Positions 29,240 through 62,150 of a stretch of 64,000 bases of DNA are shown piece after piece. The stretch is taken from NCBI GenBank assembly GCA_963777955.1, contig CAVZSQ010000003.1, forward strand, positions 32,001 to 96,000, read 5' to 3'. Source of the DNA: Calditrichia bacterium. Its GTDB lineage: Bacteria; Calditrichota; Calditrichia; JAJRVZ01. The translations under genes and the position numbers were made by a program. The notes below the pieces were generated by a model. The model worked only from the letters and a program-made list of their open reading frames with translations. It was not told where the DNA came from and did no database searches. The stretch's first letter is position 1. Each line of letters begins with the position of its first letter.

Positions 29240-29350
29240 ATAGTTGCTGTCTGCAGTACTCCTTGATTGTTCCTCATAGTTTTGCTTAATAGTCCGAATA
29301 TTATATGTAGAAGATTTTCTATTTCTATTGGTCAATTGCCGGGGGAGAAA

Positions 29351-32300: not shown

Positions 32301-33221
32301 CCGTCTTTGCTGCAGGAATTTATCTCGACAGCCCAGCAGGAAATTGATCATATAGCGGTCACTCTGGAGCGGGGTAGAAAATCAGCAAGTATAAATTTTA
32401 CGGAGCTGTTAACCCAGGTATACCGCTCCATGCATCTGTTAAAAGGTAATGCCAGCCTGCTGGCCATCAAGTTTTTTGCCGATCAGGCTCATCAGTTTGA
32501 ATCCAAAATATCGGAATTACAGCAAAACCAGAAACTGAAAAACGAAGATCTGATACCGCTTAAAGACGAACTGGAAAAGATCAAGATAATGCTGAACGAG
32601 GTGAATAAATTAATCGATAAAATCAGCCAGATTCATAACTACATGCGGCCCAAACGCGAGCATGAACTTAAGATGCTGATGCAGTCGTTAAATAACCTGG
32701 TTTTAAGATCAGTTCATGAAACGGGCAAGAAAATACATCTCAATACGGATAAATTTGAAGGGAATATCATCCCCCATCAGTATAAATTGCTGTTGAAGGA
32801 GATCCTGATCCAACTGATTCGTAATTCCATTGCTCATGGCATCGAAGATCCTGAAGAACGGTTGCGGCTGAACAAGCCGGAGGCAGGAACCATTGAAATA
32901 TCTACTGTAAAAAGGGATGATCAATTCTGCCTGATTGTCCGTGATGATGGCCGTGGAATACAGCTGGACAAATTAAAACAGGCTGTACAAAAATCAGGCA
33001 AATGGACCGAAACAGAAATAAACAACTGGAGTGATAAAGAGATCGCTCAAACCATTTTTCTTTCAGGCGTAACAACATCCGCTCAGGCAGATATGTTGTC
33101 GGGCCGCGGGATCGGGCTGGATGCCATTAAGGAAAAGATTGAGAAACACCAGGGGAAAATCGAACTGGATTATGAAACAGGAAAATATTGTAAATTTGAA
33201 GTGTGTTTGAAATTAAACTAG
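29351..33221 (+). CDS. Second beta-propeller + Y_Y_Y + TM + PAS-like + Hpt + CheA-type HATPase sensor kinase (about 1289 aa; +1 frameshift near 30638)
   Basis: DGL/WFG propeller repeats; YSYRLN...LKSGAYRFEVRARD; HLLKGNA; LIRNSIAHGIE; DDGRG; GRGIGLD. Confidence 0.85.
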
Positions 33222-33359: not shown

Positions 33360-35183
33360 ATGAAACTGGGTTTAATCGATATTGGCATTATTTTCTGTTA
33401 TCTGATTATTACGATTATCATCGGCATTATGCTAACCCGCAAGGCCTCCAAGGGTCTTGATTCCTATTTTCTGGCTGATAAAGGATTACCTTACTGGATT
33501 CTGGGCGTATCAAATGCCTCGGGTATGTTTGATATTACCGGCACCATGTGGCTGGTTTATCTGACTTTTGTATACGGACTTAAAGGTATCTGGATCCCCT
33601 GGTTATGGCCGGTATTCAATCAAATTTTTCTAATGGTTTATATGTCCAAATGGATGCGGCGCTCGAATGTGCTCACAGGGGCTGAGTGGATCAACACCCG
33701 TTTTGGTCTGGGTAAGGGGGCCGTTCTGGCTCATATCAGTGTGGTGGTATTTGCCCTGGTGAGTGTAATCGGATTTATAGCCTACGATTTTGCCGGTATA
33801 GGTAAATTTGCAGCACTGTTTCTACCCTGGGAGATATCACCGGATACTTATGCTATGATCCTGATGCTGGTCACAGCGGTTTATGTCGTGGCCGGGGGTA
33901 TGTACAGTGTGGTGGTAACCGAAATACTGCAATTTGTGGTAATGACAGTGTCCTGTGTCGGTGTGGCGATAGTGGCGATGTCTGAAACCACAACTGCACA
34001 AATCGCGGCAGCAGTGCCAGCCGGCTGGAAGGATGTTTTTTTTGGCTGGCATCTCAACCTGGACTGGTCCGGTTTAATCCAGGCAGTCAATACAAAAATT
34101 GGCGAGGACGGTTATAACCTGTTCACGATATTTTTTATGCTGATCCTGTTCAAAGGTATCCTGGTCAGCATGGCCGGCCCGGCACCGAATTACGACATGC
34201 AGCGCGTGCTGGCTACCCGGAATTCAAAAGATGCCTCAAAAATGAGTTGGTTTGTCTCAATCTGTTTATTCCCCACCCGCTACCTGATGATCACCGGATT
34301 TGCCGTAATGGCCCTGGTGTTCTACAGTTCCCAGTTGAATGCCATGGGCAGCGGCCTGGATTTCGAACAGATTCTCCCGTACACTCTTTCTAATTTCATA
34401 CCGGTCGGATTGCTGGGACTGGTTCTGGCCGGACTGCTGGCTGCTTTTATGTCTACTTTCGCCGCCACGGTTAATGCCGCTCCGGCCTATGTGGTAAATG
34501 ATATTTATAAACGATATATTAATCCGAACGCTCAGAAACGTACCCTGATCATAATGAGTTATTTCGTTTCTTTTGCCTTCGTGATCATAGGAATTTTCTT
34601 CGGTTTGCACGCCAGGGATATCAACGAGGTCACGCAGTGGATCGTTTCTGCGCTGTGGGGCGGATATACCGCGGCCAATATCCTGAAATGGTACTGGTGG
34701 CGGTTTAACGGCTACGGCTACTTCTGGGGCATGGCTACCGGTATTGCTTCCGCGCTGATCCTGTCAAAATTCCCGTTCCTTTATGTCTGGATATTCCCCG
34801 GGATTGTCAAAAACCTGTATGCCTTATATTCATTCCCGGTGATCCTGGTACTTTCAACACTGGGCTGCCTGCTGGGCACCTTCCTCTCCAAGCCGGAAGA
34901 GGATGATATCCTGATAAAATTTTACAGGCAGGTAAGACCGTGGGGATTTTGGAAACCAATCCATGCCAAAGTTTTACAACAGGAACCCGGCTTCAAGACG
35001 GATGCCAATTTCAAGTTAGACATGTTTAATGTCATTGTCGGTATTATCTGGCAGACTTCGCTGATCGTAATTCCTGTATATATTGTGCTGCGTGAAGGAT
35101 TACCGTTTGTGGAAGCTATGGTCATCCTGGTGATCACGACGCTGATTCTGAAGAAAACCTGGTGGAATAAACTGAGCGAATGA
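33360..35183 (+). CDS. Sodium:solute symporter family sugar transporter
   Basis: YFLA...PYW; many TM helices; YDMQRVLA; LAAFMST; FYRQVRPWGFW. Confidence 0.92.
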   Translation: MKLGLIDIGIIFCYLIITIIIGIMLTRKASKGLDSYFLADKGLPYWILGVSNASGMFDITGTMWLVYLTFVYGLKGIWIPWLWPVFNQIFLMVYMSKWMRRSNVLTGAEWINTRFGLGKGAVLAHISVVVFALVSVIGFIAYDFAGIGKFAALFLPWEISPDTYAMILMLVTAVYVVAGGMYSVVVTEILQFVVMTVSCVGVAIVAMSETTTAQIAAAVPAGWKDVFFGWHLNLDWSGLIQAVNTKIGEDGYNLFTIFFMLILFKGILVSMAGPAPNYDMQRVLATRNSKDASKMSWFVSICLFPTRYLMITGFAVMALVFYSSQLNAMGSGLDFEQILPYTLSNFIPVGLLGLVLAGLLAAFMSTFAATVNAAPAYVVNDIYKRYINPNAQKRTLIIMSYFVSFAFVIIGIFFGLHARDINEVTQWIVSALWGGYTAANILKWYWWRFNGYGYFWGMATGIASALILSKFPFLYVWIFPGIVKNLYALYSFPVILVLSTLGCLLGTFLSKPEEDDILIKFYRQVRPWGFWKPIHAKVLQQEPGFKTDANFKLDMFNVIVGIIWQTSLIVIPVYIVLREGLPFVEAMVILVITTLILKKTWWNKLSE

Positions 35184-36235
35184 AGTCTGTGAAGTATCTA
35201 GTCTGTAAAAAGATCCTGTGCTTAACTACATTATTAAGCCTGGCTACCGCGCTGCTCATCATATTTTCCTGTTCCAGGACACCGGATCAGCATAAGCAGG
35301 CCACTCAGGATAAAAAAGTCGTCGAAAAATTCGGACAACTGCAGGTTGTTGGAAATCAGATTGTCGATCAGCAGGGTAATCCGGTCATGTTACGCGGCAT
35401 GAGTTTGTTCTGGAGTCAATGGATGGGGCAATATTATAATTATGATTGCATCAAATGGCTGCGTGATGATTGGAAATGTACGGTCGTACGCGCCCCTGTG
35501 GGTATAGGCAAAGACGGCTATCTGGAAAATCCCGGGCAGGAAATGAAAAAAATCCGTACGGTCATTGAAGCCTGCCTGGACCTTGGTATATATGTAATCG
35601 TGGACTGGCATGATCATTATGCGCCTGATCATCGCCGGGAAGCGACTATTTTTTTTGAGACGATAGCCTCAGCATATGGCCAGGCGCCCAATATCATATA
35701 TGAAATCTATAATGAACCCGAAAAGGTATCATGGCTTGATGTGGTGAAACCATATGCCGATAGCGTCATACAGAAAATCCGGGCCATTGATGCTGATAAT
35801 CTGATCCTGGTGGGAACCCCGTTCTGGTCCCAGGATGTTGATGTGGCTTCCCTTAATCCGGTTCAGTTTAAAAATATAGCCTATACTCTGCATTATTATG
35901 CCACCACCCACCGGCAACCCATCAGGGCTAAAGCAAGTGTAGCTTTGAATAATGGTGCGGCACTTTTTGTCAGTGAATTCGGTACCTGCGAACATACCGG
36001 TAGCGGAGTGATTGACCGGCAGGAGCTGGCAGCCTGGTTCGCTTTTATGGAGCAGCATAAGATCAGTTGGTGCAACTGGTCGATCGCCGACAAAAATGAA
36101 ACTTCAGCCGCCCTGAAAAGCGGAGCCAATGCTGATGGTGGCTGGCCGGATAGCGAGCTGAGCGAATCCGGTATGCTGATCAGGGATAAAATACGAACAG
36201 GAAATCAAACCGTTTTTTCTGCGTCAGGCAATTAA
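35180..36235 (+). CDS. GH5 (subfamily 2-like) endo-beta-1,4-glucanase, lipoprotein
   Basis: GQLQV; LRGMS; IVDWH; YEIYNEP (acid/base); VSEFG (nucleophile); SWCNW; lipobox IFSC. Confidence 0.92.
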   Translation: MKSVKYLVCKKILCLTTLLSLATALLIIFSCSRTPDQHKQATQDKKVVEKFGQLQVVGNQIVDQQGNPVMLRGMSLFWSQWMGQYYNYDCIKWLRDDWKCTVVRAPVGIGKDGYLENPGQEMKKIRTVIEACLDLGIYVIVDWHDHYAPDHRREATIFFETIASAYGQAPNIIYEIYNEPEKVSWLDVVKPYADSVIQKIRAIDADNLILVGTPFWSQDVDVASLNPVQFKNIAYTLHYYATTHRQPIRAKASVALNNGAALFVSEFGTCEHTGSGVIDRQELAAWFAFMEQHKISWCNWSIADKNETSAALKSGANADGGWPDSELSESGMLIRDKIRTGNQTVFSASGN

Positions 36236-36288: not shown

Positions 36289-38727
36289 ATGAAATATGGA
36301 TATTTTGATGATGAGCAAAAAGAATATGTAATTACCCGTCCGGATACGCCGCTGCCCTGGATCAATTATCTGGGGACTGAAGAATTTTATGGCCTGATTT
36401 CCAATACAGCCGGCGGATATTGTTTTTATCAGGATTCCCGCATGCGCCGCTTAACCCGTTACCGCTACAACAATATTCCCATGGACAGCAATGGCAGGTA
36501 TCTGTATATCAAGGACGGTGATTCAATCTGGAATCCGATGTGGAAACCGATGCGCGTGGCTCTGGACCGCTACGAATGCCGGCATGGTCTGGGCTATACC
36601 CGTATAACCGGACAGAAGAATGAACTGGAGGTTTCTATATTATACTTTATTCCGCTGGAATCCAGGAATGAAATCTGGCAGGTGCAGTTGCGAAATCTTT
36701 CGAAATCTGTGAAAAAGATCAGATTGTGGAGTTTTATCGAATGGTGCCTGTGGGAAGCATATGATGATATGACTAATTTCCAGAGAAATTATTCCACTGG
36801 ACAGGTGGAGATAGAAAATGGCACTATCTTCCATATAACCGAATACCGGGAACGCCGGAATCATTATGCTTATTTTACCTGCAGTGAAAAACTGTCGGGA
36901 TTCGACAGCAGTCGCGATGCTTTTGTGGGTGTACACCAGGGTCTGGATGCACCCCAGGCTGTTTTACAGGGCAGTTGCCGGAACAGTATAGCCTATGGCT
37001 GGCTACCCCTGGCTGTCCAACAAGTCGATTTCAACCTTGAGCCTGGTGCAGCGACGCAACTCAATTTTTTGTTGGGCTATGCTGAAAATCCGGCGGATAA
37101 AAAATTTCTGGATAACGGGAAAATCAGGAAAGATGAATTTGAATCTGTAAAAAAGAAATATCTGAAAACTGCCGCCGTACAGGAATCTTTTGCTGCTCAT
37201 AAAAAATATTGGGATAATTTATTATCAACCTTTCAGGTTCACACCCCGGATATCATTATCAATCGCATGGCAAATATCTGGAATCAGTATCAATGCAAGA
37301 TCACATTTAATATGTCGCGTTCGACTTCATTATATGAATCCGGCATAGGACGGGGTATGGGTTACCGTGACAGCAATCAGGATATACTCGGATTTGTACA
37401 TATGATTCCGTCGCGGGCCCGCCAGCGTCTATTGGACCTGGCCGCCACGCAACTGGCCGATGGTACATGTTTTCATCAGTACCAGCCGCTCACTAAAAAA
37501 GGTAATGCGGATATCGGGGGCGGATTTAATGATGATCCCTTATGGTTGATCCTGGCTGTGGCGGCATATATCAAGGAAACGGGTGATGAAAGTATCCTGA
37601 ATGAAAAAACCGGTTTTGCCGATGCCCAGAATTCCCAGGCGACTTTGTTAGATCATCTGTACCTGTCGTTACAATATACCCTGGATCACCGTGGACCGCA
37701 TGGTTTACCGTTAATCGGGCATGCCGACTGGAACGATTGCCTTAATCTGAATTGTTTCTCCACCACGCCGGGGGAGAGTTTTCAATTGGCCGGACATATT
37801 GAAAATGATAAAGTTGCTGAATCAGTCATGATTGCCGGTTTATTCTGCAATGCCTGCGCGGAGATGGCCGGTATCCTGCGGCATATTGACAAAACCAAAC
37901 AAGCCCAGGAATATATTAAACATGCAGACGATATGCGCCAGACTATTTATAAACATGGTTGGGATGGCGAGTGGTTTTTGCGCGCTTATGATTCATACAG
38001 CAAAAAACTTGGATCGAAAGAAAACAAGGAGGGTAAGATTTTTATCGAAAGCCAGGGCTGGTGCATTATGGGGGCAGCCGGGCTGGAAAATGGCTATGCC
38101 CTGAAAGCGTTGGACAGTGTGCATAAGCATCTGGCCACGGCAAACGGTATAATTTTACAACAGCCGGCTTTTCACAGTTATCATGTTCACCTGGGCGAAG
38201 TCAGTTCTTATCCGCCCGGTTACAAAGAAAATGCCGGTATCTTCACGCATAACAATACCTGGATCCAGATTGCCGAAACCATTGCCGGCAGGGGGGACCG
38301 GGCCATGGAATATTACATGAGTATTTGTCCGCCGACCAAGGAAGAACAAATTGATATTTACCGTTCAGAGCCGTACGTCTACAGTCAGATGACTGCCGGT
38401 CCGGATGCGCCGACACCGGGTGAAGGGAAAAACTCCTGGCTGAGCGGTACGGCTGCCTGGTCTTTTGTCGTACTTTCCCAGTATATTCTGGGCATCTGCC
38501 CCGATTTTGACGGATTGATCGTCAATCCCTGTATACCCACTTCATGGCAAAAATGCACGGTAGTACGAAAATTCAGAGGCAGTACTTACAGGATAACGAT
38601 CAATAATCCAGCGCGGGTTAGCAAGGGTGTAAAGAATATGAAGGTGGATGGAAAAGCCTTCGGCGGCAATAAGGTACCGGTTTTTAAAGATCAAAAAGAA
38701 CATTCGGTCGAAGTTGAACTCGGTTAG
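36289..38727 (+). CDS. GH94 cellobiose phosphorylase
   Basis: TPLPWINYLG; ESGIGRGMGYRDSNQD; ADWNDCLNLNCFS; YPPGYKENAGIF; KNSWLSGTAAW. Confidence 0.9.
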   Translation: MKYGYFDDEQKEYVITRPDTPLPWINYLGTEEFYGLISNTAGGYCFYQDSRMRRLTRYRYNNIPMDSNGRYLYIKDGDSIWNPMWKPMRVALDRYECRHGLGYTRITGQKNELEVSILYFIPLESRNEIWQVQLRNLSKSVKKIRLWSFIEWCLWEAYDDMTNFQRNYSTGQVEIENGTIFHITEYRERRNHYAYFTCSEKLSGFDSSRDAFVGVHQGLDAPQAVLQGSCRNSIAYGWLPLAVQQVDFNLEPGAATQLNFLLGYAENPADKKFLDNGKIRKDEFESVKKKYLKTAAVQESFAAHKKYWDNLLSTFQVHTPDIIINRMANIWNQYQCKITFNMSRSTSLYESGIGRGMGYRDSNQDILGFVHMIPSRARQRLLDLAATQLADGTCFHQYQPLTKKGNADIGGGFNDDPLWLILAVAAYIKETGDESILNEKTGFADAQNSQATLLDHLYLSLQYTLDHRGPHGLPLIGHADWNDCLNLNCFSTTPGESFQLAGHIENDKVAESVMIAGLFCNACAEMAGILRHIDKTKQAQEYIKHADDMRQTIYKHGWDGEWFLRAYDSYSKKLGSKENKEGKIFIESQGWCIMGAAGLENGYALKALDSVHKHLATANGIILQQPAFHSYHVHLGEVSSYPPGYKENAGIFTHNNTWIQIAETIAGRGDRAMEYYMSICPPTKEEQIDIYRSEPYVYSQMTAGPDAPTPGEGKNSWLSGTAAWSFVVLSQYILGICPDFDGLIVNPCIPTSWQKCTVVRKFRGSTYRITINNPARVSKGVKNMKVDGKAFGGNKVPVFKDQKEHSVEVELG

Positions 38728-40636
38728 ATGAAGAATATAAAAAAGAAGAAAACTACCGCGACCAAACCATCGCCGGTTTTATCCCAGCAGAAAAAACTGA
38801 TTTTCTGGATTATAACTGTTTCCATACCGGTATTGCTGCTGCTGCTGCTGGAAGCATTTTTGCAGATTTTTAATTATGGCGGCGATTTAGATCTATTTAT
38901 TGAGGGTCCGCCCGGTTATGAAAATTACCTGCGTTGTAATCCCAATGTAGCCCGCCGTTATTTTTTTGTACAAACTGATCTGCCTACACCGCCCAAACAA
39001 TTATTCCTGAAACAGAAACCGGCCGACGGGTATCGTATATTCGTCCTGGGGGAATCTTCGGCGGCAGGATTCCCTTATAGTACCAATGTTTCTTTCCCTA
39101 ACGTTTTACAACGCGGCCTGGCCAATACTTTTCCAGGAAAGAATATTGAGGTTGTCAATATAGCCATGTCGGCAATCAACAGTTATGCCCTGTTGGATCT
39201 GCTGGATGAGATTTTTGAGCAATCCCCCGATGCGCTGTGTATCTATACCGGTCATAATGAATATTATGGCGCGCTGGGAGTGGGATCGGTTCAATCGATA
39301 GGTAATTGGCCATGGTTAATCCGGACTTTTCTCGATTTTCAATCCATTAAAACTGTACTGTTGCTGCGGGATTGTATCGGCTGGTTCAAAATAAAATTCA
39401 GCAAAATATTTTTTAAAGGGAGTGAGATTGATCCCTCGGCTACATTGATGGAGAGAATCGTAACGGAACAGACCATTCCTTTAGGTAGCCCGCTGTACGA
39501 GGCCGGTAAACGGCAGTTCGAGCAGAATATGGAAACGATTATTAAAAAGGCAGCGGACCGTGACGTAGCGGTGCTAATAAGTGAGTTAATCAGTAATCTG
39601 CGCGACCAGGAACCATTTGTTTCGGTGGAGGATAAAGAAGGTCGCTCAGCCATGTCTTTGTTCAAACAAGCCCGCCAGTTCGAATCAGCTAATGAATTTA
39701 ATAAAGCTAAAACATATTATGCACAGGCCAGGGATCTGGATGCACTGCGTTTTCGTGCTCCCGCAGAATTTAATATAATCATCCGAAAACTGGTTGATAA
39801 GTATGCTCAGGTCTTAGTCCCCGCCGTTTCATATTTTGAAAAGTCCTCTCCTAATGGATTGATCGGTAATACACTTATCCTGGAGCATGTCCATCCCAAC
39901 AAAGCCGGTTATTTTTTATTGGCCCGGGCTTTTTATGAAACCATGCAGCAGCAGCGGATGATCGGGACGGACTGGGCGTATGATGGTCTGGCGCAGGAAT
40001 GGGACCAGGGTATAACCGGTCTGGATAGTGTCTATGCGCAGTTGGTCATCCGGCAATTAAAATCAGGCTGGCCTTTCCAGCCCAAGTCTTTGCCTAATCG
40101 TTTCCTGAAGACGTTCCAGCCCGGGAACCGTCTGGAAGAGATATCTTTTCGCGTTTTACATAGTAAAAATTTCAGCCTGGAATCTGCTCATATGGAATTG
40201 GGTAAATTGTATGAAAAAGAGAATCAGTTGGATCAGGCCCTGGCCGAGTTTCAGGCGCTGATAACATCTATTCCTTATGAAGTCGATTTTTATCAGCAGG
40301 CGGGACTGGTGCTGATTGCCAAAAAAGAGTATCTAAAAGCTTCGCAACTTTTACAGCAATCTTTACTATACCGCGATAATAAATTTGCCAATAAATGGAT
40401 TGGACAAATCGCTTTTATGCAGGGGGATTATGAGGAAGCTTATTACCTATTTACTGAAAGCCGATTTGCAGGATATTCAGGTGTTGTTTAATTTAAGCCG
40501 TGTTTATTATGCCATGGATCAATGGGAAAATGGCGATACATATTATGGGCGTCTAAAAAATCTGGCTCCCCGTTCCGAGTATGCGACATACTTAACCAAA
40601 TTACGTATGGCGATCCAATCGAAACGCGGTTTATAA
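38728..40636 (+). CDS. Membrane-anchored SGNH/GDSL-like protein with TPR repeats (+1 frameshift near 40440)
   Basis: N-terminal TM; LGESSAAG; YTGHNEYYG; EHVHPN; TPR-like C-terminus continuing in 40385-40636. Confidence 0.8.
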
Positions 40637-40687
40637 ATGTATAATTACACAGAATAATGTATAATTAAACAGAAAAATGTATAATCT
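40636..40687 (+). repeat. Three direct repeats with a 20-bp period (AATGTATAATTA[C/A]ACAGAA)
   Basis: Units start at 40636, 40656 and 40676 (third is partial). Confidence 0.9.
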
Positions 40688-40758: not shown

Positions 40759-40787
40759 TTGACATAAAGACTAATTATATTTAGAAT
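40759..40787 (+). promoter_or_regulatory. Sigma70-type promoter of the TonB-receptor operon
   Basis: TTGACA-17 nt-TAGAAT. Confidence 0.75.
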
Positions 40788-40985: not shown

Positions 40986-43900
40986 ATGTCGGTGGGTAAA
41001 TACCGGATTTTAATAGTATCTATCTTGTGTTCCATGTTGTTTATAAAAATTCTGGTCGCCGGAACGACAGGTAAGATTGCCGGCCGGATTATGGAAAAAG
41101 ATTCGGGTAATCCCTTACCCGGAGTTAATGTCGTGGTCAAAGGAACTTATCTGGGTGCAGCCACGGATGTGGACGGTTATTATGCCATTCTTTCTGTTCC
41201 GCCCGGCATACAGAGTGTGGAAGCGAGCATGATTGGTTATGCAACCGTAACAGTAAACGAAGTGCGGGTGCAGATCGATCAAACTGCTCCGGTCAATATC
41301 GAAATGGTTTCGGAAGTAATCGAAGCAGCGAGTGTGGTCATCATCGCCGATAGAAACCTGGTAAAACCGGATGTCTCCACCAGCGTTTCAGCAGTACGAC
41401 CCGAGGAAATAGAAGCATTACCGGTAACCAATATTAATGATGTAGTAAGCCTGCAAGCCGGTGTTGAAAAGGGATTGGTTGTCAGGGGCGGTGGTGCGGA
41501 TGAACTGCTGTTTCAGGTGGATGGTGTCACTTTCCGCGATCCCAGAAATAATCAGCCTATCTCGGCTATTCCTTTGACTTCCATTCAGGAATTGTCCATT
41601 GAACGTGGAGGCTTTAATGCTGAATACGGACAGGTACGTTCCGGTATAGTCAACACGGTTCAGAAGGAAGGGGATGTTGCCAGCTATGCAGGTATGATGA
41701 CTGCGCGATATAGTCCTCCGCAGCAGAAGCATTTCGGCATATCTGTTTTCGATCCTAATTCCATGTGGAACCGGCCTTATCTGGATCCGGCTGTATGCTG
41801 GGTCGGTACCGCCAATGGATCATGGGACGAATATACCCAGCGGCAGTATCCGCAATTTGACGGCTGGGATGCAATTTCCAAGGGTTTGTTGGAAGATGAC
41901 GATCCCAACAATGATCTTTCCCCCGCTGCCTGTAAGCGTTACTACGAATGGACCCATCGCAGGCGGCCGATAACCGATGAACCTGATTATGATCTTGATG
42001 GAAGTTTTAGCGGACCTGTACCTTTTATCGGTAAGAAGCTGGGAAATTTGCGTTTTCTGGCCAGTTACCGGGTTGAAAGAGAGATGCTGCTGATTCCGCT
42101 CAGCCGGGCTGATTATAAGGATTATGTTTTTTCATTTAAAATAAATTCCGATATCAGCAGCAAAATGAAACTGATGATTACTTCGACAATGGGTAAATCG
42201 TATAATGTACCCATTAATCAGAATGATCAGCAATTCTGGAATCTTACTTTTGGTATAAATGGCACCAATGTCTGGAATCCTACAGATTTTATGCGGACTC
42301 CGCTGCAAATTGCAGCTGTTACCAATGAGCAACGACCCTCGAGAATTTTTTCCAATTCCTGGTATAGTCAGTCGGAAGTCAGTCATTTCACCTTTGCGGC
42401 CAAACTTACTAACTTTTTAAGTGCTTCGACCTACTACGAAGCAAGTTTTGAACATGTTTCCCGTGACTATCTGACCGGTCCTGTCCGGAACCGTGATCTG
42501 ACCAGGCGTTATGAAATCACCCCGGGTTATTTTGTGGATGAAGCTCCTTATGGCTATGATCCAAATCCGGATGCCGACCTTGCGGGAATGTTCTTCGGCG
42601 GTCACAGTTCCACTGCCCGTGATTCCAGTGATATTCAATCTTATGTTCTTAAAGGAGATCTGACCAGTCAGCTCAACAAGCAACATCTGGTTAAAACCGG
42701 AATTGAGTTTTCCTATTATAATCTCAATCTGGATTATGGCTTGCTTAATGTATATTTTGGCGATGTGAACTGGGTAAAAGAGAAGTGGAATCCTTACCGC
42801 CTGTCGATGTATGCCCAGGACAAGATCGAGGCTCTGGGCTTTATCGCCAATATAGGTGTAAGATTGGATCTGAGTAATCCGAATACGGACTGGGTGAATG
42901 TGGATCCTTTCAATAAAGGCTACTATTCAACCAGTTATAGTACGGATTCCACCTATGCCAGAGAAAAAGCCAAGGTCGATGTCGCCTTCAGTCCGCGGCT
43001 GGGTATATCGCATCCCATTACTGAGAATTCAAAGTTGTATTTTAATTATGGCCATTTTAAGGAATTGCCCGCTTATGAAGAAATTTTCCGGTTAGGCCGG
43101 GGCTCAGCGGGTAGTATGCGCAATAATGGCGATCCCAATTTAGAGCAGGCCAGGACTATCTCCTATGAATTGGGCTATGATCATGTCATAGCTACTGACT
43201 ATCTGATCCAGCTGGCTGCTTTTTATCATGATATCACCAGTCAGCAGGGTTTTACCCAGTATCTGAGTGACAGAAAGGGTATCGGTTATTTTGCCGCTAA
43301 TAATAACAATTACCGGGATATCCGCGGATTCGAACTTACCCTCAGAAAAAATTACGGTACCTGGATACGTGGATTTGCTAATTATACTTATATGAATGTG
43401 ACTCAGGGAGCTTTTGGCAAGCAAACCATTGATGAAGATCCCTATCGGCAGCGATTGATTGATCAGAACACCCCATTATTATATCAGCAAAAACCTGTAC
43501 CGCAACCCCGGGCCAATGCAAGTTTAATGTTTTTAACCCCGACGGAATTTGGACCGGAATTACTGGGTATCAAACCGGCAGCCGATTGGTCGCTGAATAT
43601 ACTGGCGCAGTGGCAAGCCGGTGCCTGGTTTACCTATCAGAAATATGTGATTGCCGAAGAGGTCAACAACGTGCAGACAACCGATATCTTCAATTTTGAT
43701 CTGCGCTTGAATAAATCTTTCGATTTTAAAGCATTAAGTGTGACCCTGTTCATGCAGGTAGAAAATGCTTTCAATTTCAAAAGAATGTCCGGGGAGAGTT
43801 TTTATAATACTTTCGATTTCCAGTACTATATGGAATCGCTGCATCTGCCGGAGAATCGTGCTTATGATAATATTCCCGGTGATGACCGGGCCGGTGATTA

Positions 43901-44180
43901 TCGCAAACCCGGCGTGGCCTATCAACCAATCGAACAGAGTGGAAACGTAAATGGCATACCTGCTGCTAATATCAGATATGGTGTGATTTATTATGACGGG
44001 CCGACTAAAAAATACATGTATTTTCCGGAGGGCGCCACTATCCCTGTTGAAGTAGAAAAAGGCCGGATGCAAAAGATTCTGGATGATAAAGCCTATATCG
44101 ATATGCCCAACAACACTTCCTTTACGTTTCTGAATCCCAGACAGTTTTTCTATGGGATTACGTTAACCTTTAAATTATAA
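40986..44180 (+). CDS. TonB-dependent receptor with an N-terminal carboxypeptidase-regulatory-like domain
   Basis: GTTGKIAG...LPGVNV...GAATDVDG; plug VRGG...VDG; GGFNAEYG; FSPRLGISHP; NPRQFFYG C-terminal strand. Confidence 0.9.
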   Translation: MSVGKYRILIVSILCSMLFIKILVAGTTGKIAGRIMEKDSGNPLPGVNVVVKGTYLGAATDVDGYYAILSVPPGIQSVEASMIGYATVTVNEVRVQIDQTAPVNIEMVSEVIEAASVVIIADRNLVKPDVSTSVSAVRPEEIEALPVTNINDVVSLQAGVEKGLVVRGGGADELLFQVDGVTFRDPRNNQPISAIPLTSIQELSIERGGFNAEYGQVRSGIVNTVQKEGDVASYAGMMTARYSPPQQKHFGISVFDPNSMWNRPYLDPAVCWVGTANGSWDEYTQRQYPQFDGWDAISKGLLEDDDPNNDLSPAACKRYYEWTHRRRPITDEPDYDLDGSFSGPVPFIGKKLGNLRFLASYRVEREMLLIPLSRADYKDYVFSFKINSDISSKMKLMITSTMGKSYNVPINQNDQQFWNLTFGINGTNVWNPTDFMRTPLQIAAVTNEQRPSRIFSNSWYSQSEVSHFTFAAKLTNFLSASTYYEASFEHVSRDYLTGPVRNRDLTRRYEITPGYFVDEAPYGYDPNPDADLAGMFFGGHSSTARDSSDIQSYVLKGDLTSQLNKQHLVKTGIEFSYYNLNLDYGLLNVYFGDVNWVKEKWNPYRLSMYAQDKIEALGFIANIGVRLDLSNPNTDWVNVDPFNKGYYSTSYSTDSTYAREKAKVDVAFSPRLGISHPITENSKLYFNYGHFKELPAYEEIFRLGRGSAGSMRNNGDPNLEQARTISYELGYDHVIATDYLIQLAAFYHDITSQQGFTQYLSDRKGIGYFAANNNNYRDIRGFELTLRKNYGTWIRGFANYTYMNVTQGAFGKQTIDEDPYRQRLIDQNTPLLYQQKPVPQPRANASLMFLTPTEFGPELLGIKPAADWSLNILAQWQAGAWFTYQKYVIAEEVNNVQTTDIFNFDLRLNKSFDFKALSVTLFMQVENAFNFKRMSGESFYNTFDFQYYMESLHLPENRAYDNIPGDDRAGDYRKPGVAYQPIEQSGNVNGIPAANIRYGVIYYDGPTKKYMYFPEGATIPVEVEKGRMQKILDDKAYIDMPNNTSFTFLNPRQFFYGITLTFKL

Positions 44181-44214
44181 ATAGAATATTCTGATAATAC
44201 GAGGTATTAGTCAC

Positions 44215-46387
44215 ATGGTTAAAAGATATTGGTCAAGAGCGATTATCATCATCATAATGTTGTATGCAGCCGGTATCGATGATTCCCAGTGTTTATATGC
44301 CCAGGTTACCGGCCCGCAGGAGGTCAGATGGATCTGGGTGGGTTCCTTACGGCACTGGTTTTCCAGTGGTGGCGCTGAAATTGAATACGGCCGGCGCAGC
44401 AGAGCATTTCTGAAGCACCGATCAGATCGATGGATTAATGTGGCCGGCGCAGTATAGTAACCAGGATGTCAATTGCGGTAAAAGTTTATGGATCGGCACC
44501 ACAAATTTTGCTGATCCCATCGATGGACGGACTTTCCCCTGCAAGGTTGTCAAAGCCGGCCGGCCATTTATGTACATCAATACCGAAATATTCCCTGCGG
44601 AGTTTGCCCTGATTGCCCGGTCTGAACGTCCTGCAGTGCTGGTTGACCAGATGAGTTCTTCGGATCTTGATTATAATGATGAGGTTGATCAGATTGATCC
44701 GAATCTGGAAGCCGACCGTATGATTTACAATACTATTAATACTACAGTCGGAGTGACGGTTACCAGAAAAGTGCGGGCTTTCAGCCAGCAGTACCATGAT
44801 AATTATTTTATTTACGAATATGTTTTTAAAAATACGGGTATAATTGATAATACAGGAGTACAGAAATTATCCGCTGACCTGACCGGTGTTATTTTTCACT
44901 TCCAGTACCGTTATGCCTTTGCCGGGGAATCCTACCGGGGCGGCTGGTCGCCTTCCGGTGTGAGTTGGGGAAGAAATGCTATCAATGATGTAGTGGGACA
45001 GGATGCCGCCCATACTCTGCCGCCGCCCAACGATTTCCGTGCAATCTTTGCTTACTACGGGCCAACGCCCAGTGCAACAAGTGTAGCCGCTGATATTGGC
45101 TTACCCAATCGTCAATCGGGCTATATAATGGCCGGTACAAAATTTGCCGGAGTCATTGTACTGCATGCCGATGCTTCACCCCAGGATCATAGCGACGATC
45201 CGGCTCAACCTGCTACAACTCAATTTATGGGTTCCGACCAGGATGGGCAGTCAGTCAATCAATACGATGCTTCGTTAATGGAAGAGTCGTATAGTTTCAT
45301 GTCGGCAGGTCATCCGTCGCAAACTCATGCCGACCGGATCGGCAAAGATGCGAACGGCTGGCCGAGCGGCATTGCCGATATTCCGGTAGGGTTGACTGAT
45401 CCGGGCGGTTATTCCTCCGCAATGGGATTCGGTCCTTATACCATGGCCATCGGTGATAGCATCAGAATTGTGCTGGCTGAGGCGATTGAGGGACTGGATA
45501 AAGATCGTTTATTGAATAAAGAGATAAGCAGAAAGTGGTTTACCAAAACCCCGCCCTATGTTCTGCCTGATCAAAGCACTACTACCGATGCTGATATCTA
45601 CAAAAACACCTGGGTATTTAAAGGTAAAGACTGGTTATTTGAATCTTTTCGCAGGGCCAGAGCGAATTATAACAGCGGATACCAGATCGCCCGGCCGCCG
45701 GATCCTCCCCAACAGTTCACCATTAATTCCAGCGGCAATAAAATATCTCTGACCTGGTCTAATAATGCCGAAGCGGAAGCGACTTTTGCCGGGTATCAGA
45801 TATTCCGTGCCGAAGGCAGACCGGATACGACTTACGATCTGATCTTTTCCTGCGACAAAAACAACGTCGTGAATAATTTTGACGACAGAACCGCCCGCCG
45901 GGGATTTACTTACTATTACTATATACAAACCAAAGATGACGGTTCGACCAATACTGATGCTGCCCTGAATCCCGTCGGTCCGCTGGTCAGCAGCAGATTT
46001 TACACGCAAACCAATCGCGAAGCCTATTTAACCCGCCCTGCCGGTACCAGCCTCAGCGATATACGGGTAGTGCCCAATCCCTATAATATCAGCATGAAAG
46101 ATCTGCAATTTGGACAGGATATTCCTGACCGGCTCGCTTTTTATGGCCTGCCCCCATTTTGCAGGATAAAAATCTATACGGAAACCGGAGATCTGATTGA
46201 AACGATCGATCATACCAACGGCAGTGGCGATGACTACTGGCACTCTTTGACTTCATCCAACCAGCTGGTGGTCAGTGGTTTATATATAGCATATTTTGAA
46301 GTTACTAAAGATACCTACAACGAGCAGGGTAAATTAATTTTCAAGAAGGGTGATAATATTTTCCGAAAATTTATAATAATTCGATGA
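44215..46387 (+). CDS. Large exported partner protein with an Fn3-like region and a CTD-like C-terminus (about 723 aa; +1 frameshift near 44415)
   Basis: Signal peptide; GFGPY; LTW...GYQIFR...YYYY; VVPNPY...LP...IYTETG...SGLYI...KFIIIR*. Confidence 0.8.
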
Positions 46388-46408
46388 TAAAAGCAGTGGG
46401 AGAACGAA

Positions 46409-47158
46409 ATGTGTTATAAAGGGAAGAATAACTATCTTTACGCCTGGAAGTTAGTACTGGCAAGTCTGTTTCTGTTAACGGTGATAGGATGTGATAGTTT
46501 ACTGCCTGAAAAATTACAGGAAAAAGAATACGAAGCAGCTGAACTTGATCAAAATGCCTGTTACTGGCTTTCACTTCCGGATACTCTCTATGACTCGCTG
46601 GCATATAGAGTGCAGGCCCGTACCTTGCAAAGTTGTCTGACCGGAGCGGATACAATGTGGCTGGATTCGGCGGATAATAAGATCATATATGCCAATTTCA
46701 ACCACCTGACCGACAGTCTGAAAACGCTGGAGCGCAATTCCTTATTATTGATTGGTTACCCGGCTGACCAGGATACAGTTTATACTGTCCTGAATGTCAC
46801 CGCCGGACAAGCAGCCTCCACAAATTTATACCTGAGTTTAGAATATTATTACGATACTGAAAATGAAACAAATACCACCAATGTGAATGAATATGTTACG
46901 ATTGAACTGTTGAAACAGGACACTACCCGGGTCAGTTCAGCCATTGATCTGCAAGGCGAGACCCTGTCGGGGTGCAGCAAGGAAGTTATTATCGCCCAGG
47001 ATGAACGGATTATACCCGTAATTAGAGGGCGCTACAAATTTCAACTGGCCGAGGGTGTGTATGTTGTCCGTTATATTTTAACCAATCCAGTGAATATAGC
47101 GCCTTTTCTCAAAGGTACAAACAGGCGGAATTATTTTTTTAAAGTTGTTATATTATAA
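46409..47158 (+). CDS. Hypothetical lipoprotein
   Basis: Lipobox VIGC; GGAG RBS; co-oriented within the operon. Confidence 0.75.
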   Translation: MCYKGKNNYLYAWKLVLASLFLLTVIGCDSLLPEKLQEKEYEAAELDQNACYWLSLPDTLYDSLAYRVQARTLQSCLTGADTMWLDSADNKIIYANFNHLTDSLKTLERNSLLLIGYPADQDTVYTVLNVTAGQAASTNLYLSLEYYYDTENETNTTNVNEYVTIELLKQDTTRVSSAIDLQGETLSGCSKEVIIAQDERIIPVIRGRYKFQLAEGVYVVRYILTNPVNIAPFLKGTNRRNYFFKVVIL

Positions 47159-47197
47159 TTGTGCTAAAAATGAAATTCCAAAAGGAGAATATATAAA

Positions 47198-48220
47198 GTG
47201 AAACGATTAACAATAACCTGCTGGACAGCAATATTAATAATCGGATTGCTTACATCTCTATCCTATGGTCAGGAAAAGTGGGCGCAAACCGGTTTTAACT
47301 TTCTCAATGTATCATCCGATGCCAGGGCAGCGGCGATGGGTGATGCAGTTAATTCTATTTCCGGATATTCGGGTGCACTATTTCATAATCCTGCTACGAT
47401 GGCGGAAATGCCCACATTATTCACTGCCGATTTCAGTATAAATTCATGGATAGCGGATATTAAGTATTTAGAACTGAGTTTGATTGTCGCTCCCTATTCC
47501 GGAGATTATGGTGTGGTCGGTATCAGTTTGCAATCGGTGGACTACGGTGATGTTCTCGGTACTATGGTCTGGAATAATAGTCAGGGTTATGTCGATACCG
47601 AAGTACTGAATCCTGCCGCGCTAGCTATCGGCATCGGTTATGCTAAAATGCTGTCGGATCGTTTCGGAGTTGGCGGGCAGATTCGCCTGGCCTATCAGGC
47701 TCTGGGTAAAAGTATTGTCCCATCCGCATCCGGCAACAGTTTATTAACCAAAAGAAATGTTGCCGACGCAATAGCCTATGATTTCGGTACCATTTTCAAA
47801 ACTGGTGTCAAAAGTCTGGCCTTCGGCATGTCGGTGCGTAATTTTTCCCAGGAAGTAAAGTACGAGGAAGAAGGATTCCAGCTGCCCCTGCTGTTTACTT
47901 TAGGGATATCGGCAAATTTGTTTGATTTCATGGAAGTAGGCGGACCAGAACAGGTTCTGCTGCTCTCGCTTGATGCCACCCATCCCCGTTCCCATCCGGA
48001 GCAGATAAAAATGGGAATGGAATATCAGTTAATGAAAGTCCTGGCCTTAAGGGGCGGATATATTACCAGTAATTCTGAAGACGGTGTGACTTTTGGTCTG
48101 GGAGTGACTTCGGCCGGTCTGGGTATGACTTCGCTGGGTAGTTTTAAAGTTGATTATTCGTATACACCGTTCGGCGTGTTTGATAATGTCCAACGGTTCA
48201 CCGTATCTTTATCACTGTAA
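47198..48220 (+). CDS. PorV/PorQ-family outer-membrane beta-barrel protein
   Basis: AQTGFNFL...ARAAAMG...FHNPA; AYDFG; GMSVRNF; LRGGY; VDYSY; RFTVSL. Confidence 0.85.
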   Translation: MKRLTITCWTAILIIGLLTSLSYGQEKWAQTGFNFLNVSSDARAAAMGDAVNSISGYSGALFHNPATMAEMPTLFTADFSINSWIADIKYLELSLIVAPYSGDYGVVGISLQSVDYGDVLGTMVWNNSQGYVDTEVLNPAALAIGIGYAKMLSDRFGVGGQIRLAYQALGKSIVPSASGNSLLTKRNVADAIAYDFGTIFKTGVKSLAFGMSVRNFSQEVKYEEEGFQLPLLFTLGISANLFDFMEVGGPEQVLLLSLDATHPRSHPEQIKMGMEYQLMKVLALRGGYITSNSEDGVTFGLGVTSAGLGMTSLGSFKVDYSYTPFGVFDNVQRFTVSLSL

Positions 48221-48240
48221 ACTTATAGAGTGGCGAGAAT

Positions 48241-49503
48241 ATGAAAAATAAAAAATCAGTTTACTGCCTTCTGGGCCTGGCTGTGTTCATCTTAGGAATG
48301 GTCAGCGCCTGTAATGTCTTTAATGAACCTGATGCGATTTACAATCCCACCACGACGGTGGATCCGGCTATAACCGGTGTAACTCCGGCGGGAGGGGCCA
48401 TGGCCGGGGTCAGGAAAATTACCATCAGTGGTGAAAATTTTGTAACCAATCTTGATTCGATTGATGTTTATTTCGGCTCGCAAGCGGCGATAATAGACAG
48501 TGCCACTATTACTTCGACCCAATTGGTGGTTAATCGTCCGCTTAATTACGGACAGTCGCTTGAGGTCAAGGTTGTAATTCCGTCACGGATGGGAATCGCC
48601 AAGAGTTTTAATTATAACCTGGAGCAACCGATAGAGACCTGGGGTAATTTCAGCACAATTGCCCGTGAATTCTATACCATGGAAATTGATAACCAGGATA
48701 GATTATGGATCAGCGCACGGAGATATATTTACACAGTATCGTCTGACGGGCTGTATGTCACGTTGTATAAAAATGATAAAATGGGTTTAGGTTCTAAATA
48801 TTCTGAATTTACCGATATGCGTTACGGAGGGGGAGGATACCTGTATTTTGTTCTGGGAAATCAGAAGGATATTTACCGTATTAATACGACCAGCTGTTCA
48901 TGTGAGAACGATTCACTCCCTCCGGAAGTATATTGTACCCTTCCGGGCAATATATCTAAAATGGATTTTAACGATAACGGTAATATTTATACAGGTAAGA
49001 ATACAGGTTTATACCTGGTGGATGCGGCAAAAAATATAACTGCCACTGGCCTGTACAGCGGCTTTACCCTTGTGGATATACATATATATGACGATTATGT
49101 GTACGTGGCAGATGCGACCCGTGTTTATAAAAGTGCTATCCAGGGCGATGGCAGCCTGGCTGGCCAGGAACTGCTGGTTGATCTAACCGTATTGCCTGAA
49201 GATATATATGAGGTGAGTACATGTAAAATTTTATCATTTAGTATTGATATTAATGGTAAAATTTACTTATGTTTAGATAATCATCCGCAATATTCGGTAT
49301 TTTGTCTTGAAGATGATGGGACAGTTACTCCATTTTATATTGATAATATCTTACCGCAGGGAGTTGAACAATTGATCTGGGGTAATTCCAGGTATTTATT
49401 CTTAAACAGAGGTATGGGCGTATCGGTCGATTCACTGCGCGGTGTTCACCGGATGGGTATGATGAATGACGGCGCCCCCTATCTGGGCCGGGATTTACCT
49501 TAA
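48241..49503 (+). CDS. Lipoprotein with an IPT/TIG domain and a beta-propeller
   Basis: Lipobox VSAC; PAITGVTP...ITISGENF...VYFG. Confidence 0.8.
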   Translation: MKNKKSVYCLLGLAVFILGMVSACNVFNEPDAIYNPTTTVDPAITGVTPAGGAMAGVRKITISGENFVTNLDSIDVYFGSQAAIIDSATITSTQLVVNRPLNYGQSLEVKVVIPSRMGIAKSFNYNLEQPIETWGNFSTIAREFYTMEIDNQDRLWISARRYIYTVSSDGLYVTLYKNDKMGLGSKYSEFTDMRYGGGGYLYFVLGNQKDIYRINTTSCSCENDSLPPEVYCTLPGNISKMDFNDNGNIYTGKNTGLYLVDAAKNITATGLYSGFTLVDIHIYDDYVYVADATRVYKSAIQGDGSLAGQELLVDLTVLPEDIYEVSTCKILSFSIDINGKIYLCLDNHPQYSVFCLEDDGTVTPFYIDNILPQGVEQLIWGNSRYLFLNRGMGVSVDSLRGVHRMGMMNDGAPYLGRDLP

Positions 49504-49671
49504 TAATGATACTAACATTAAATCAGGACAAACACTTAAATTTATTTAATAATTAAAAAAGCCGGTACAACAAAAAATAATCTTAGAATGAGATTAGAAA
49601 GGAGGATGCTGGGGAGAAAGAATGTATTGTTTTTTTTGGCTAAACGGAATTAACTATACAAGGAGAAAAGA

Positions 49672-51320
49672 ATGAAGAAGCTTTTTACGATTTTTGCACT
49701 GCTTGTGCTTGCTTTCTGTTTCACGGCAACATTGTATGCCGGGAATAAAACAATGGATGGTGATGTTCTGCAAGTACGCAAAGTCTGCCGAACCACCGGC
49801 CATTGATGGTGAAATGGATGATATCTGGTGCAATGTAACCGCAATGCCTCTGACTAAGTTCGAGGGTGTGCCCAGAGATTCAATCATGGATTTTGATGAT
49901 CATTCCGCTACCGTTCGTGTCATGTGGGATGATGCGGCAATTTATTTTCTGATAACTGCTATGGATGATTCCTCCTGGGCTCTGGATGCCTCATCCGCCT
50001 GGTTGAATGATGCCGTGGAAATGTTCTTTGACGGTGGGAATGAAGACGCTGCTTCCTATGACGCCAATGACATTCAATGGCGCTGGGTCCGTGATGAAAC
50101 TCCCGAGAATAATCCAATCGGCGATGGCCCGGGAACTTATGCTTGGGCAGATCATAACGGCAGTTATGTGTTTGAGCTGCATGATTGCTCAGGATCAACT
50201 GTTGAAGAATAGCGCCGAGATATTTTCTCTGGTTGGCGATACTGAAATCGGCTGGGAAGTTTCCAATGCCGATCGTGAAAGTCTCGAGGGAACCCGTCAG
50301 GATGTACTGCATTGGTGGACCGATAATGCCTTTACCTGGCAACAACCGGCCTCTTTCGGTACTGCCTTATTGACCGAGGTACCAGTGGGCACAGTTCTGC
50401 TTGCCAAACACGCCGATGTACCACCGGCTATTGATGGTGAAATGTCAGAAGGCGAATGGAGTCAAGCCGAGGAAATAGCCCTGACCAAGTTTGAAGGTGT
50501 CCTGGATGCTTATCCTCCGGATTCCACACTGGTCAACTGGAAAGATCATACCTCATCCTTCTGGATCTTGTGGGATGAAAGTGCTCTGTATGTCTGCTTG
50601 AAAGCATATGATGATTCCTCCTGGGCTCTGGATGCCTCATCCGCCTGGTTGAATGATGCCATCGAAATGTTCTTTGACGGTGGGAATGAAGACGCTGCTT
50701 CCTATGACGCCAATGACATTCAATGGCGCTGGGTCCGTGATGAAACTCCCGAGAACAATCCTATCGGTGATGGCCCGGGTACCTATGCTTGGGTAGATAT
50801 AGAAGGTGGTTATATATTTGAGCTGATGATTGCTCAGGATCAACTGTTGAAGAACAGCGTTCAGATATTTACTCTCGCTGAAGACACGGAAATCGGTTAT
50901 GAAATTTCCAATGCCGATCGTGAAAGTCTCGAGGGAACCCGCCAGGATGTACGTCATTGGTGGACCGATAATGCCTTTACCTGGCAGCAACCTGCCTCGT
51001 TCGGTACGGTACTTTTGTCGCCATCCACTGCAGTCAGACCCGGCGACCAGGTAGTTAACGGCTATAAACTCGAGCAAAATTACCCGAATCCTTTTAACCC
51101 CACGACTGAAATAGCTTATACTCTGCCGAAAACTGAAAAGGTAAAGGTAGTTGTTTATAACCTGTTAGGTGATCAGGTAGCACAGCTGGTGAATACCACC
51201 CAGCATGCCGGACCGCATACGGTTACTTTTAATGCAGCAAATCTGGCCAGTGGCGTCTACTTCTATCAATTAGAAGCCGGAAGCATCAATCTGGTGAAAA
51301 AGATGATGTTCATTAAATAG
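49672..51320 (+). CDS. Secreted non-catalytic protein: two CBM9-like (DOMON-like) sugar-binding domains plus a T9SS type-A CTD (about 548 aa; +1 frameshifts near 49757 and at 50180)
   Basis: AGGAG then MKKLFTIF signal peptide; two copies of PPAIDG...W...WD...DAxEMFFD; LEQNYPNPFNP...ASGVYFY...KKMMFIK*. Confidence 0.85.
49964..51007 (+). repeat. Near-identical intragenic direct repeat (49964-50362 versus 50610-51007)
   Basis: Long identical runs, e.g. gatgattcctcctgggctctggatgcctcatccgcctggttgaatgatgcc, in both copies. Confidence 0.92.
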
Positions 51321-51348
51321 TCACCAGTTTTTATTGTTTTTGTTGTTT

Positions 51349-51387
51349 AAAACGTCTGTGTCTTAATTGACACAGACGTTTTTTTTT
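51349..51387 (+). terminator. Intrinsic terminator of the TonB operon
   Basis: AAAACGTCTGTGTC-ttaatt-GACACAGACGTTTT followed by a T-tract. Confidence 0.88.
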
Positions 51388-51476
51388 AATCTGCAGCTGT
51401 GTATATTTATAGATCATAGTATCACAATCGCCAAATGCCGTGATAATAAATCATATAGAATTATAAGGAGTTGATC

Positions 51477-57700: not shown

Positions 57701-58177
57701 GATCTGCTGAAACTATCGCGGATAACCCGGGGCAGCATAACCAAAGAGCGGATTGATCTGAGCAGGATTGCGGAAAATATAATTAACCGGTATAAACAGG
57801 AGGAACCGCAGCGGAAAGTCAAATTTGTCATAGCGGAAGGATTAAGTGCCGACGGCGATGCGAATTTGCTGAGGGTGGCGCTGGAGAATCTGTTGCACAA
57901 TGCCTGGAAGTTTACTTCAAAAAAAGAAAATACAAAGATCGAGTTTGGTCAGGAACAAGGCCAGGACGGGGTTATCTTTTTTATCAGAGATAATGGTATT
58001 GGTTTTGATATGAAATACAGGTCAAAACTTTTTGAGCCCTTTCAGCGGTTGCAGACGGAATATCTGGGTATGGGTATCGGCTTAGCCACGGTTGAACGGA
58101 TCATTAACCGTCACGGCGGACGCATCTGGGCTGAGGGCAAGGTAGATGAAGGTGCGGTTTTTTATTTTAGTTTATAA
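54774..58177 (+). CDS. Beta-propeller/Y_Y_Y sensor histidine kinase, class I HisKA + HATPase (frameshifts near 54835 and 57168)
   Basis: FEHISAQEGLSQ; WIGTWGGG repeats; YTNLDPGQYTFRVKASNND; SVSHDLRAP; NAWKF; DNGIGF; GIGLA. Confidence 0.87.
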
Positions 58178-58185
58178 GGTCTAGA

Positions 58186-62147: not shown

Positions 62148-62150
62148 ACA

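Follow-up and report, generated by a model that had tools for sequence, protein, structure and literature searches.

In the SusC/SusD (RagA/RagB) polysaccharide utilization loci (PULs) and utilisomes of Bacteroidota, the lipoprotein SusD forms a lid on the receptor SusC (PMC13450635). Barrel-anchored proteins are known from type IX secretion systems (T9SS). PorZ of Porphyromonas gingivalis keeps its C-terminal tail, which belongs to neither the A nor the B type, and is anchored by PorQ, a barrel of the PorV/PorQ family (PMC10947112). Cargo whose C-terminal domain (CTD) is of type B uses cognate shuttle barrels, PorP/SprF, that are encoded directly downstream and anchor it as well (PMC12618676, PMC9143113). 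Papers are cited here by accession. The locus described below lies in a 64,000-nucleotide stretch of the genome of a Calditrichia bacterium (assembly GCA_963777955.1, contig CAVZSQ010000003.1, positions 32,001 to 96,000; C3:32001-96000 in the contig numbering used here), hereafter the window. It encodes a TonB-dependent receptor, an exported partner protein with a variant C-terminal tail and a barrel of the PorV/PorQ family. By analogy, this triad would combine the working of a SusC/SusD core with an anchor in the manner of PorQ-PorZ, although it belongs to neither system.

With the SusC/SusD loci of PMC13450635 it shares a receptor with an N-terminal extension and a partner gene immediately next to it, accessory surface lipoproteins, carbohydrate-active enzymes (CAZymes) and an inner-membrane transporter, and the occurrence of numerous paralogous loci in one genome, in glycan as well as peptidase settings. 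It differs in that the receptor falls far below the cut-off of the SusC/RagA model TIGR04056 (61.2 bits against 368, with the match limited to residues 30-153), which excludes it from that family. In addition, the partner is no lipoprotein, is modeled as a beta-supersandwich and bears a secretion tail, and a barrel gene belongs to the core of the system. The PorQ-PorZ couple of P. gingivalis is one housekeeping pair, whereas here 13 copies are tied to receptors; the body of the partner is not that of PorZ, and the barrel, at 78.6 bits on the PorQ model NF033711 (cut-off 220), was rejected as a PorQ ortholog. The likeness to type B cargo lies in a barrel gene downstream of each cargo gene, with inferred cognate recognition and surface anchoring. 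Membership in the type B/PorP-SprF class was likewise rejected: the barrel is matched by PorV/PorQ-type models only, and the type B model TIGR04131 misses the window tail and matches just 1 of 18 tails of its class (E 0.069). The known type B cargoes, moreover, are adhesins without a receptor link.

Occurrence of the receptor-partner-barrel triad

A first-pass annotation of the window, made without database searches, had presented the arrangement as a design specific to this locus. Instead, the triad occurs 13 times in the 4.24-Mb genome, among at least 23 receptors, and is its main receptor architecture. Paralogous triads adjoin glycoside hydrolase (GH) genes (GH31/GH2/GH12, GH16/GH30, GH53/GH2), or GH130 with an ABC transporter; others adjoin M14, M20 and M28 peptidases. 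The annotation was right that no SusD follows the receptor. None of the unit's genes has a match to a SusD family, and a genome-wide search with four SusD profiles (PF07980, PF14322, PF12771 and PF12741), for which controls were positive, gave no match in an assembly that is 91.8% complete; together with the receptor score, this removes the locus from the SusC/SusD class. Nor did a SusD fold, which would have spoken against the annotation, appear in the partner or in the 249-residue lipoprotein encoded next to it, as models of both are beta-rich and match other folds, with the limit that such fold lists cannot exclude a family.

The expected conservation of the triad was borne out by a survey of gene neighborhoods. 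Related loci were found with the partner, and the best 80 of 542 confirmed GTDB stretches were taken; they belong to Ignavibacteria, Melioribacteraceae, KSB1, Calditrichia, Neomarinimicrobiota, Kryptoniota, WOR-3 and others. Within these 80, a receptor is present in all 71 loci with room upstream and is adjacent to the partner in 70, and a barrel is present in 68 of the 69 loci with room downstream, at 3 kb or less in 67 of the 69. The other genes of the unit are less constant, with the IPT lipoprotein in 66 loci, the small lipoprotein in 27 and the CBM9 protein (named for its carbohydrate-binding modules) in 22. Retention of the IPT lipoprotein in 66 of 80 loci goes against the part of the first-pass proposal in which lipoproteins like surface glycan-binding proteins are replaced. 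At E 1e-10 the partner family has 985 matches; at 50% identity it forms 2512 clusters, a count that includes matches to the FN3 domain or the tail only. A second set of loci was collected with a distant paralog, whose profile homology to the partner has a probability of 99.95. Of these 79 metagenome loci, 76 carry the tail. A barrel directly adjoins the partner in 71 of 72, and all 44 loci with room have a receptor, which is adjacent in 43. The tail also occurs in 66 of 121 genomes of a Bacteroidota sample, a count made irrespective of adjacency to a barrel.

No description of the triad was found in the literature searched, a search outside which most subscription papers and supplements lay, and the terms PorV, T9SS, KSB1 and Ignavibacter do not occur in the text of PMC13543919. 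The triad is a widespread and apparently undescribed variant. An intact orthologous locus is present in the genus Melioribacter, in 5 of 5 genomes; the genus includes a cellulose degrader in culture for which the route of uptake was not settled (PMC3534657). The same paper labels an operon of M. roseus SusC/D/E. Melioribacter-genus genomes gave no SusD match (PF07980 in G023, G024 and G026; PF12771 and PF12741 in these and also in G248 and G249), and the published label may cover another architecture. A second triad paralog of Melioribacter sits with GH31 and GH2 genes and is not identified with the starch "sus operon" of that paper. Because PUL prediction relies on SusC/SusD pairs, it overlooks genomes like this one, in which 13 triads occur without any SusD. 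With the triad as a marker, loci for the uptake of glycans and peptides would become recognizable in lineages from sediments, wetlands and hot springs.

Partner tail, barrel and secretion machinery

The exported protein of about 720 residues with a CTD-like end, as first annotated, is a partner of ~723 residues with a signal peptide that has no lipobox and with a variant tail. Its fold was read from a model of the homolog P0002 (724 residues, 77% identical; pLDDT 91.2, pTM 0.85), which predicts a beta-supersandwich, an FN3-like domain and the tail. At the N-terminus the predicted fold resembles the domain, itself non-catalytic, with which GH94/GH15/GH65 enzymes begin (Z 18.6, root-mean-square deviation 3.9, 275 residues aligned), with Z scores of 17.5-18.6 to 5nz7, 1lf6 and 2cqs for the N-terminal 460 residues of the partner. 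Unlike those enzymes, to which it is 8-10% identical, the partner continues after the supersandwich with FN3 and tail and has no catalytic barrel. A PDB sequence search with the partner gave nothing beyond a weak FN3 match. The supersandwich and FN3 are also found fused to GH5, beta-helix, dockerin or BNR propeller domains (P0087, P0133, P0144-P0148, P0203, P0215 and others), and most of these fusions carry an ordinary type A tail. The N-terminal part can thus exist outside the triad form, and from such sequences the two domains could be a portable docking or binding module.

The tail of the window partner, searched alone, matches nothing in Pfam or NCBIfam, and the type A model TIGR04183 does not find it even at E 1, so that it is not type A cargo by that model. 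Members of its class show weak matches to PorZ (17 of 18), to type A (16 of 18, best E 2.6e-07) and to PorU tails (14 of 18). A profile built from 12 partner tails found a thirteenth member in the genome (frameshifted, 54.5 bits) and no orphan, with other proteins at 44 bits or less; in leave-one-out tests, held-out tails scored 74-142 bits against at most 47 for non-members. Each of the genome's 13 variant tails has a barrel no more than 3 kb away and a receptor in its locus. Among the 129 ordinary tails of type A, by contrast, one has a barrel within 1 kb, and that barrel is on the opposite strand. The tail is very probably a type IX signal, and these comparisons point to a class of secretion tail that current models miss.

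The barrel was tested against the single housekeeping copy with which it might have been confused. It scores 76.7 bits on the housekeeping PorV model NF033710 (cut-off 250), and a separate class of barrels scoring ~300 bits on NF033709, where the window barrel reaches 179.7, is single-copy in 19 of 20 relatives. By its scores and copy number the ~300-bit class is probably the housekeeping PorV, which in this genome is probably the split gene at C22:793521 (226 + 81 bits). Across the genome, NF033709 gives 38 matches at ~27 places, 18 of them above the cut-off, and 13 of the places are in triads. A tree was made of 30 barrels: ten triad barrels of this genome (the three frameshifted ones were omitted), 11 from other loci and nine non-triad paralogs. 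The 21 triad barrels, including that of the window, fall on one side of a branch with support of 93/95. The first-pass view that the unit's barrel is not the housekeeping PorV is upheld by all of these results, and the triad points to the use of PorV paralogs as private anchors.

The tandem CBM9-like protein has, as first annotated, two CBM9 matches and a type A tail (42.8 bits on TIGR04183, cut-off 23). Its proposed export or tethering by the barrel of the locus fared less well. Because type A tails are not coupled to barrel paralogs, the CBM9 protein more likely leaves through the housekeeping PorV.

The first-pass annotation had assumed a Bacteroidota-type setting. The host is a member of Calditrichia that has SprA without detectable GldL, GldM or GldN. 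One SprA locus is present, in pieces, at C13:142-148 kb, together with two PorU-like Peptidase C25 genes, TonB and 148 type A tail (TIGR04183) matches. GldL, GldM and GldN gave no match in the genome with positive controls for all three, though divergent homologs are possible and GldK was not searched. GldL and GldN were also without a match in two single-contig relatives and were present in 2 of 2 control genomes, and the GldM control found matches in 29 of the 121 Bacteroidota genomes. Among 58 relatives and triad carriers, SprA is found in 57 and GldM above the cut-off in none; gliding genes have been noted as missing in Caldithrix (PMC5317091). The heavy use of type IX tails without detectable GldL/M/N raises the question of how SprA is energized.

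Other associations of tails and barrels were seen in the genome. Near SprA (L015, C13:134565-148123) a 491-residue protein with a CTD-like tail is followed by two PorV-family genes, and a PorU-like gene has its own barrel at C22:766649-771318. Further tail and barrel pairs without a receptor lie on C14, on C24 and at C13:487 kb, some of these barrels with C-terminal extensions.

Proposed surface capture and rival explanations

In the mechanism proposed here, the partner would cross the outer membrane through SprA, stay uncleaved at the surface on its own PorV-like barrel and work there as the capture subunit of the neighboring receptor, with the two lipoproteins likely acting as accessory surface binders. 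The parts of this proposal differ in strength. By analogy with PorZ on PorQ, it is likely that the tail is read by the adjacent barrel and is not cleaved. That the partner, once tethered, touches the receptor and holds substrate above its opening is put at an even chance. The proposal as a whole, in which the partner leaves by the type IX route, stays on a barrel of its own and replaces SusD as the capture subunit of the receptor, is judged to be evenly balanced as well. Tentatively, and with slightly less confidence, the triad would represent a second, widespread architecture for nutrient capture at the outer membrane. The lid of this receptor clade would then be no lipoprotein but type IX cargo whose tail, of a third class, stays uncleaved on a private PorV-like barrel, the three proteins forming one complex. 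Calditrichota, KSB1, Ignavibacteria and their neighbors would rely on it as their main uptake system, served by a translocon without the known motor.

Several results weigh against this proposal. The tail of the window partner matches no CTD model even at E 1, and in Flavobacterium export needs the GldLM motor (PMC10994853), of which neither GldL nor GldM has a match here. In the barrel tree, support does not reach the starred level and the rows outside the triad group sit on long branches. For 146 tail-barrel pairs (~96 effective), covariation did not rise above that of within-clade shuffles (5.05 against 4.91 +/- 0.09, with a maximum of 5.07), in a test whose intra-chain control was dominated by relatedness. 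Over 45 complete loci, which are not independent, the partial correlation of tail with barrel was 0.11 and that of receptor with barrel 0.45. The folds of supersandwich type include enzymes (GH174, PL26 and mutarotases), and the N-terminal part of the partner is also fused to GH5, beta-helix or BNR domains and to type A tails. One receptor of the triad clade (C23:27452) has no partner or barrel of its own. Finally, SusD also occurs in 23 of the 66 tail-bearing genomes of the Bacteroidota sample; strict mutual exclusion of the triad with SusD is thereby rejected, and the triad is to be regarded as an alternative to SusD and not as its strict replacement. In the relatives and triad carriers SusD was found in 19 of 58 genomes, at full length in only one of those.

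The orphan receptor (C23:27452-30745; L004:3452-6745) has GH31 and GH13 genes on its two sides. A full triad lies 4.5 kb upstream of it, and the receptor may share the partner of that triad.

Several of the same observations can be read differently. The partner, tethered on its own barrel, may be a surface enzyme or a free glycan binder, with the receptor lidless, as most are outside Bacteroidota, and the genes together through co-regulation. The supersandwich does match a GH174 fucanase (Z 13.7), a PL26 lyase (Z 13.2) and mutarotase-like proteins (Z ~13), some proteins join this domain to GH5 or to other cargo, and an orphan receptor exists. This explanation is nevertheless considered unlikely. 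Among 86 family representatives, the only acidic or histidine positions of the N-terminal part conserved at 90% or more are D167 (0.90) and D473 (0.99), which form no catalytic cluster, although the test is a weak one; homologous partners occur in both glycan and peptidase contexts, which hardly fits one enzyme activity; and the adjacency of partner and receptor (70 of 71 and 43 of 44) is tighter than that of any enzyme gene in these loci. The strongest partial correlations would instead suit a complex in which the barrel binds the receptor directly (0.45), the partner is a scaffold for lipoproteins and enzymes, and the IPT-propeller lipoprotein, found in 66 of 80 loci of the subfamily, binds the substrate. 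The correlation of that lipoprotein with the N-terminal domain of the partner is 0.48 (45 complete loci among L023-L102), a value that relatedness may explain, as both are drawn from related, non-independent loci. At the 13 triads of this genome, moreover, the partner is always present and the IPT lipoprotein is found at only four, and this scaffold role appears improbable.

Two further explanations concern export and not capture. The barrel might be a dedicated shuttle that holds the partner only transiently once SprA has handed it over. A PorU-like sortase would then remove the tail, leaving the partner free or attached to a glycolipid. PorV does shuttle type A cargo (PMC12618676) and the genome has two PorU-like C25 genes, but a shuttle could be shared, yet every triad keeps its own barrel, and the tail class is most like the uncleaved tails of PorZ and PorU (PMC10947112); such a cycle is considered improbable. 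Least probable of all is that the receptor lends the energy of TonB to export, pulling barrel-bound cargo off SprA without a GldLM motor, with import secondary. The release of substrate is known to need energy (PMC10994853), and the near-universal SprA and missing GldM of the 58 genomes would suit such a role, as would the distribution in the Bacteroidota sample, where 51 of the 92 genomes that lack GldM, and 0 of the 29 that have it, contain tails at E 1e-30 or better. That anticorrelation is confounded by lineage, however; no receptor lies next to the housekeeping PorV or the 148 type A tail matches, and triads track substrate-specific enzyme clusters. Capture of substrate by a barrel-held partner is kept here as the preferred reading.

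The putative transcription unit, its neighbors and a probable substrate

All six genes of the unit that had first been annotated were confirmed on the plus strand (Table 1). The claim that they run from a promoter to a terminator is less secure. The promoter-like site tops its list and the terminator-like hairpin is the longest of its own, but the lists themselves are near the size expected by chance (40 sites against 30.6, and 17 hairpins against 12.9), and a single transcript for the six genes is plausible. An AT-rich gap of 168 nucleotides precedes the CBM9 gene, and the tandem repeat upstream of the promoter-like site is a possible operator or regulator site.

Table 1. Features of the putative transcription unit and of the genes upstream of it (window positions)
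Feature	Coordinates	Strand	Details
Sodium:solute symporter	33360..35183	+	travels with closest orthologous loci
GH5 glycoside hydrolase (Pfam Cellulase)	35180..36235	+	lipoprotein-like signal
GH94, cellobiose-phosphorylase type	36289..38727	+	bits: 1123 (cellobiose phosphorylase 3qde), 451 (chitobiose phosphorylase 1v7v)
SGNH/GDSL-TPR protein	38728..40491	+	travels with closest orthologous loci
20-nt tandem repeat, 2.5 copies	40635..40685		~75 nt upstream of promoter-like site
Sigma70-type promoter-like site	40759..40787	+	11/12 matches; consensus match only
TonB-dependent receptor	40986..44180	+	1064 aa; CarboxypepD-like domain, plug, barrel
Partner protein	44215..46387	+	ATG 44215; ~723 aa across frameshift ~44415
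Partner variant C-terminal tail	46055..46384	+	PNP motif to KFIIIR
Accessory lipoprotein	46409..47158	+	249 aa; invariant Cys28
PorV/PorQ-family barrel	47198..48220	+	340 aa; NF033709 179.7 bits, cut-off 90
IPT-propeller lipoprotein	48241..49503	+	420 aa; IPT/TIG domain and beta-propeller
Tandem CBM9-like protein	49672..51320	+	ATG 49672; ~548 aa; frameshifts ~49784, ~50180
Intrinsic terminator-like hairpin	51349..51382	+	14 pairs and T run

Three frameshifts interrupt the unit. That of the partner was placed by tblastn with P0002 at ~44410, and all three were compared with contigs from sequencing runs of related strains, at low depth and not from this strain. One base fewer was found at 44415 and at 49784 in 2 of 4 runs each, and at 50180 in 1 of 4, a second run that covers 50180 being without it there. 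Because contigs of related strains lack the extra base and intact partner homologs of 715-740 residues are common, the three frameshifts are probably assembly errors, and true pseudogenes were rejected for the partner and the CBM9 gene on the same grounds. Some flanking genes are also split into overlapping open reading frames, consistent with frequent frameshifts of the assembly.

The model of the accessory lipoprotein is a small beta-sandwich like PPC/collagen-binding domains (Z 8.7, root-mean-square deviation 2.6, 109 residues aligned); a PDB sequence search with this protein found no match.

The statement that the unit contains no hydrolase holds inside the unit itself, but GH5, GH94, SGNH and symporter genes lie directly upstream on the same strand and supply the co-located CAZymes and inner-membrane transporter by which a PUL is recognized. 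The 17 loci closest in partner sequence all have the CBM9 protein, and in seven of them a GH94 scores more than 1200 bits. In loci farther away in sequence, GH20 and ROK genes occur instead, and three have a GH94 near 490 bits. GH5 is found within 10 kb in only 1 of the 80 related loci, and one homolog has the N-terminal part of the partner fused to GH5. In a Melioribacter-genus locus (L201), receptor, partner, barrel, IPT, CBM9, SGNH, symporter, GH5 and GH94 genes form one co-directional run. Because the genes for a cellobiose phosphorylase, a GH5 enzyme and a symporter lie upstream and travel with the closest orthologs, the substrate is probably a cello-oligosaccharide, which would be cut by GH5, imported by the receptor and the symporter, and phosphorolyzed by GH94. 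The unit would then be the outer-membrane core of a probable locus for cellodextrin utilization.

Directly after the terminator-like hairpin, window positions 51471-54344 encode an exported protein of 957 residues that contains a CBM4/9 domain as well as an alpha/beta-hydrolase region; a relative was found in only 1 of the 80 related loci. Around the locus lie a GH3 gene and several sensor kinases that carry regulator propellers (24365-26491 on the minus strand, 29267-33221 and 54952-63746).

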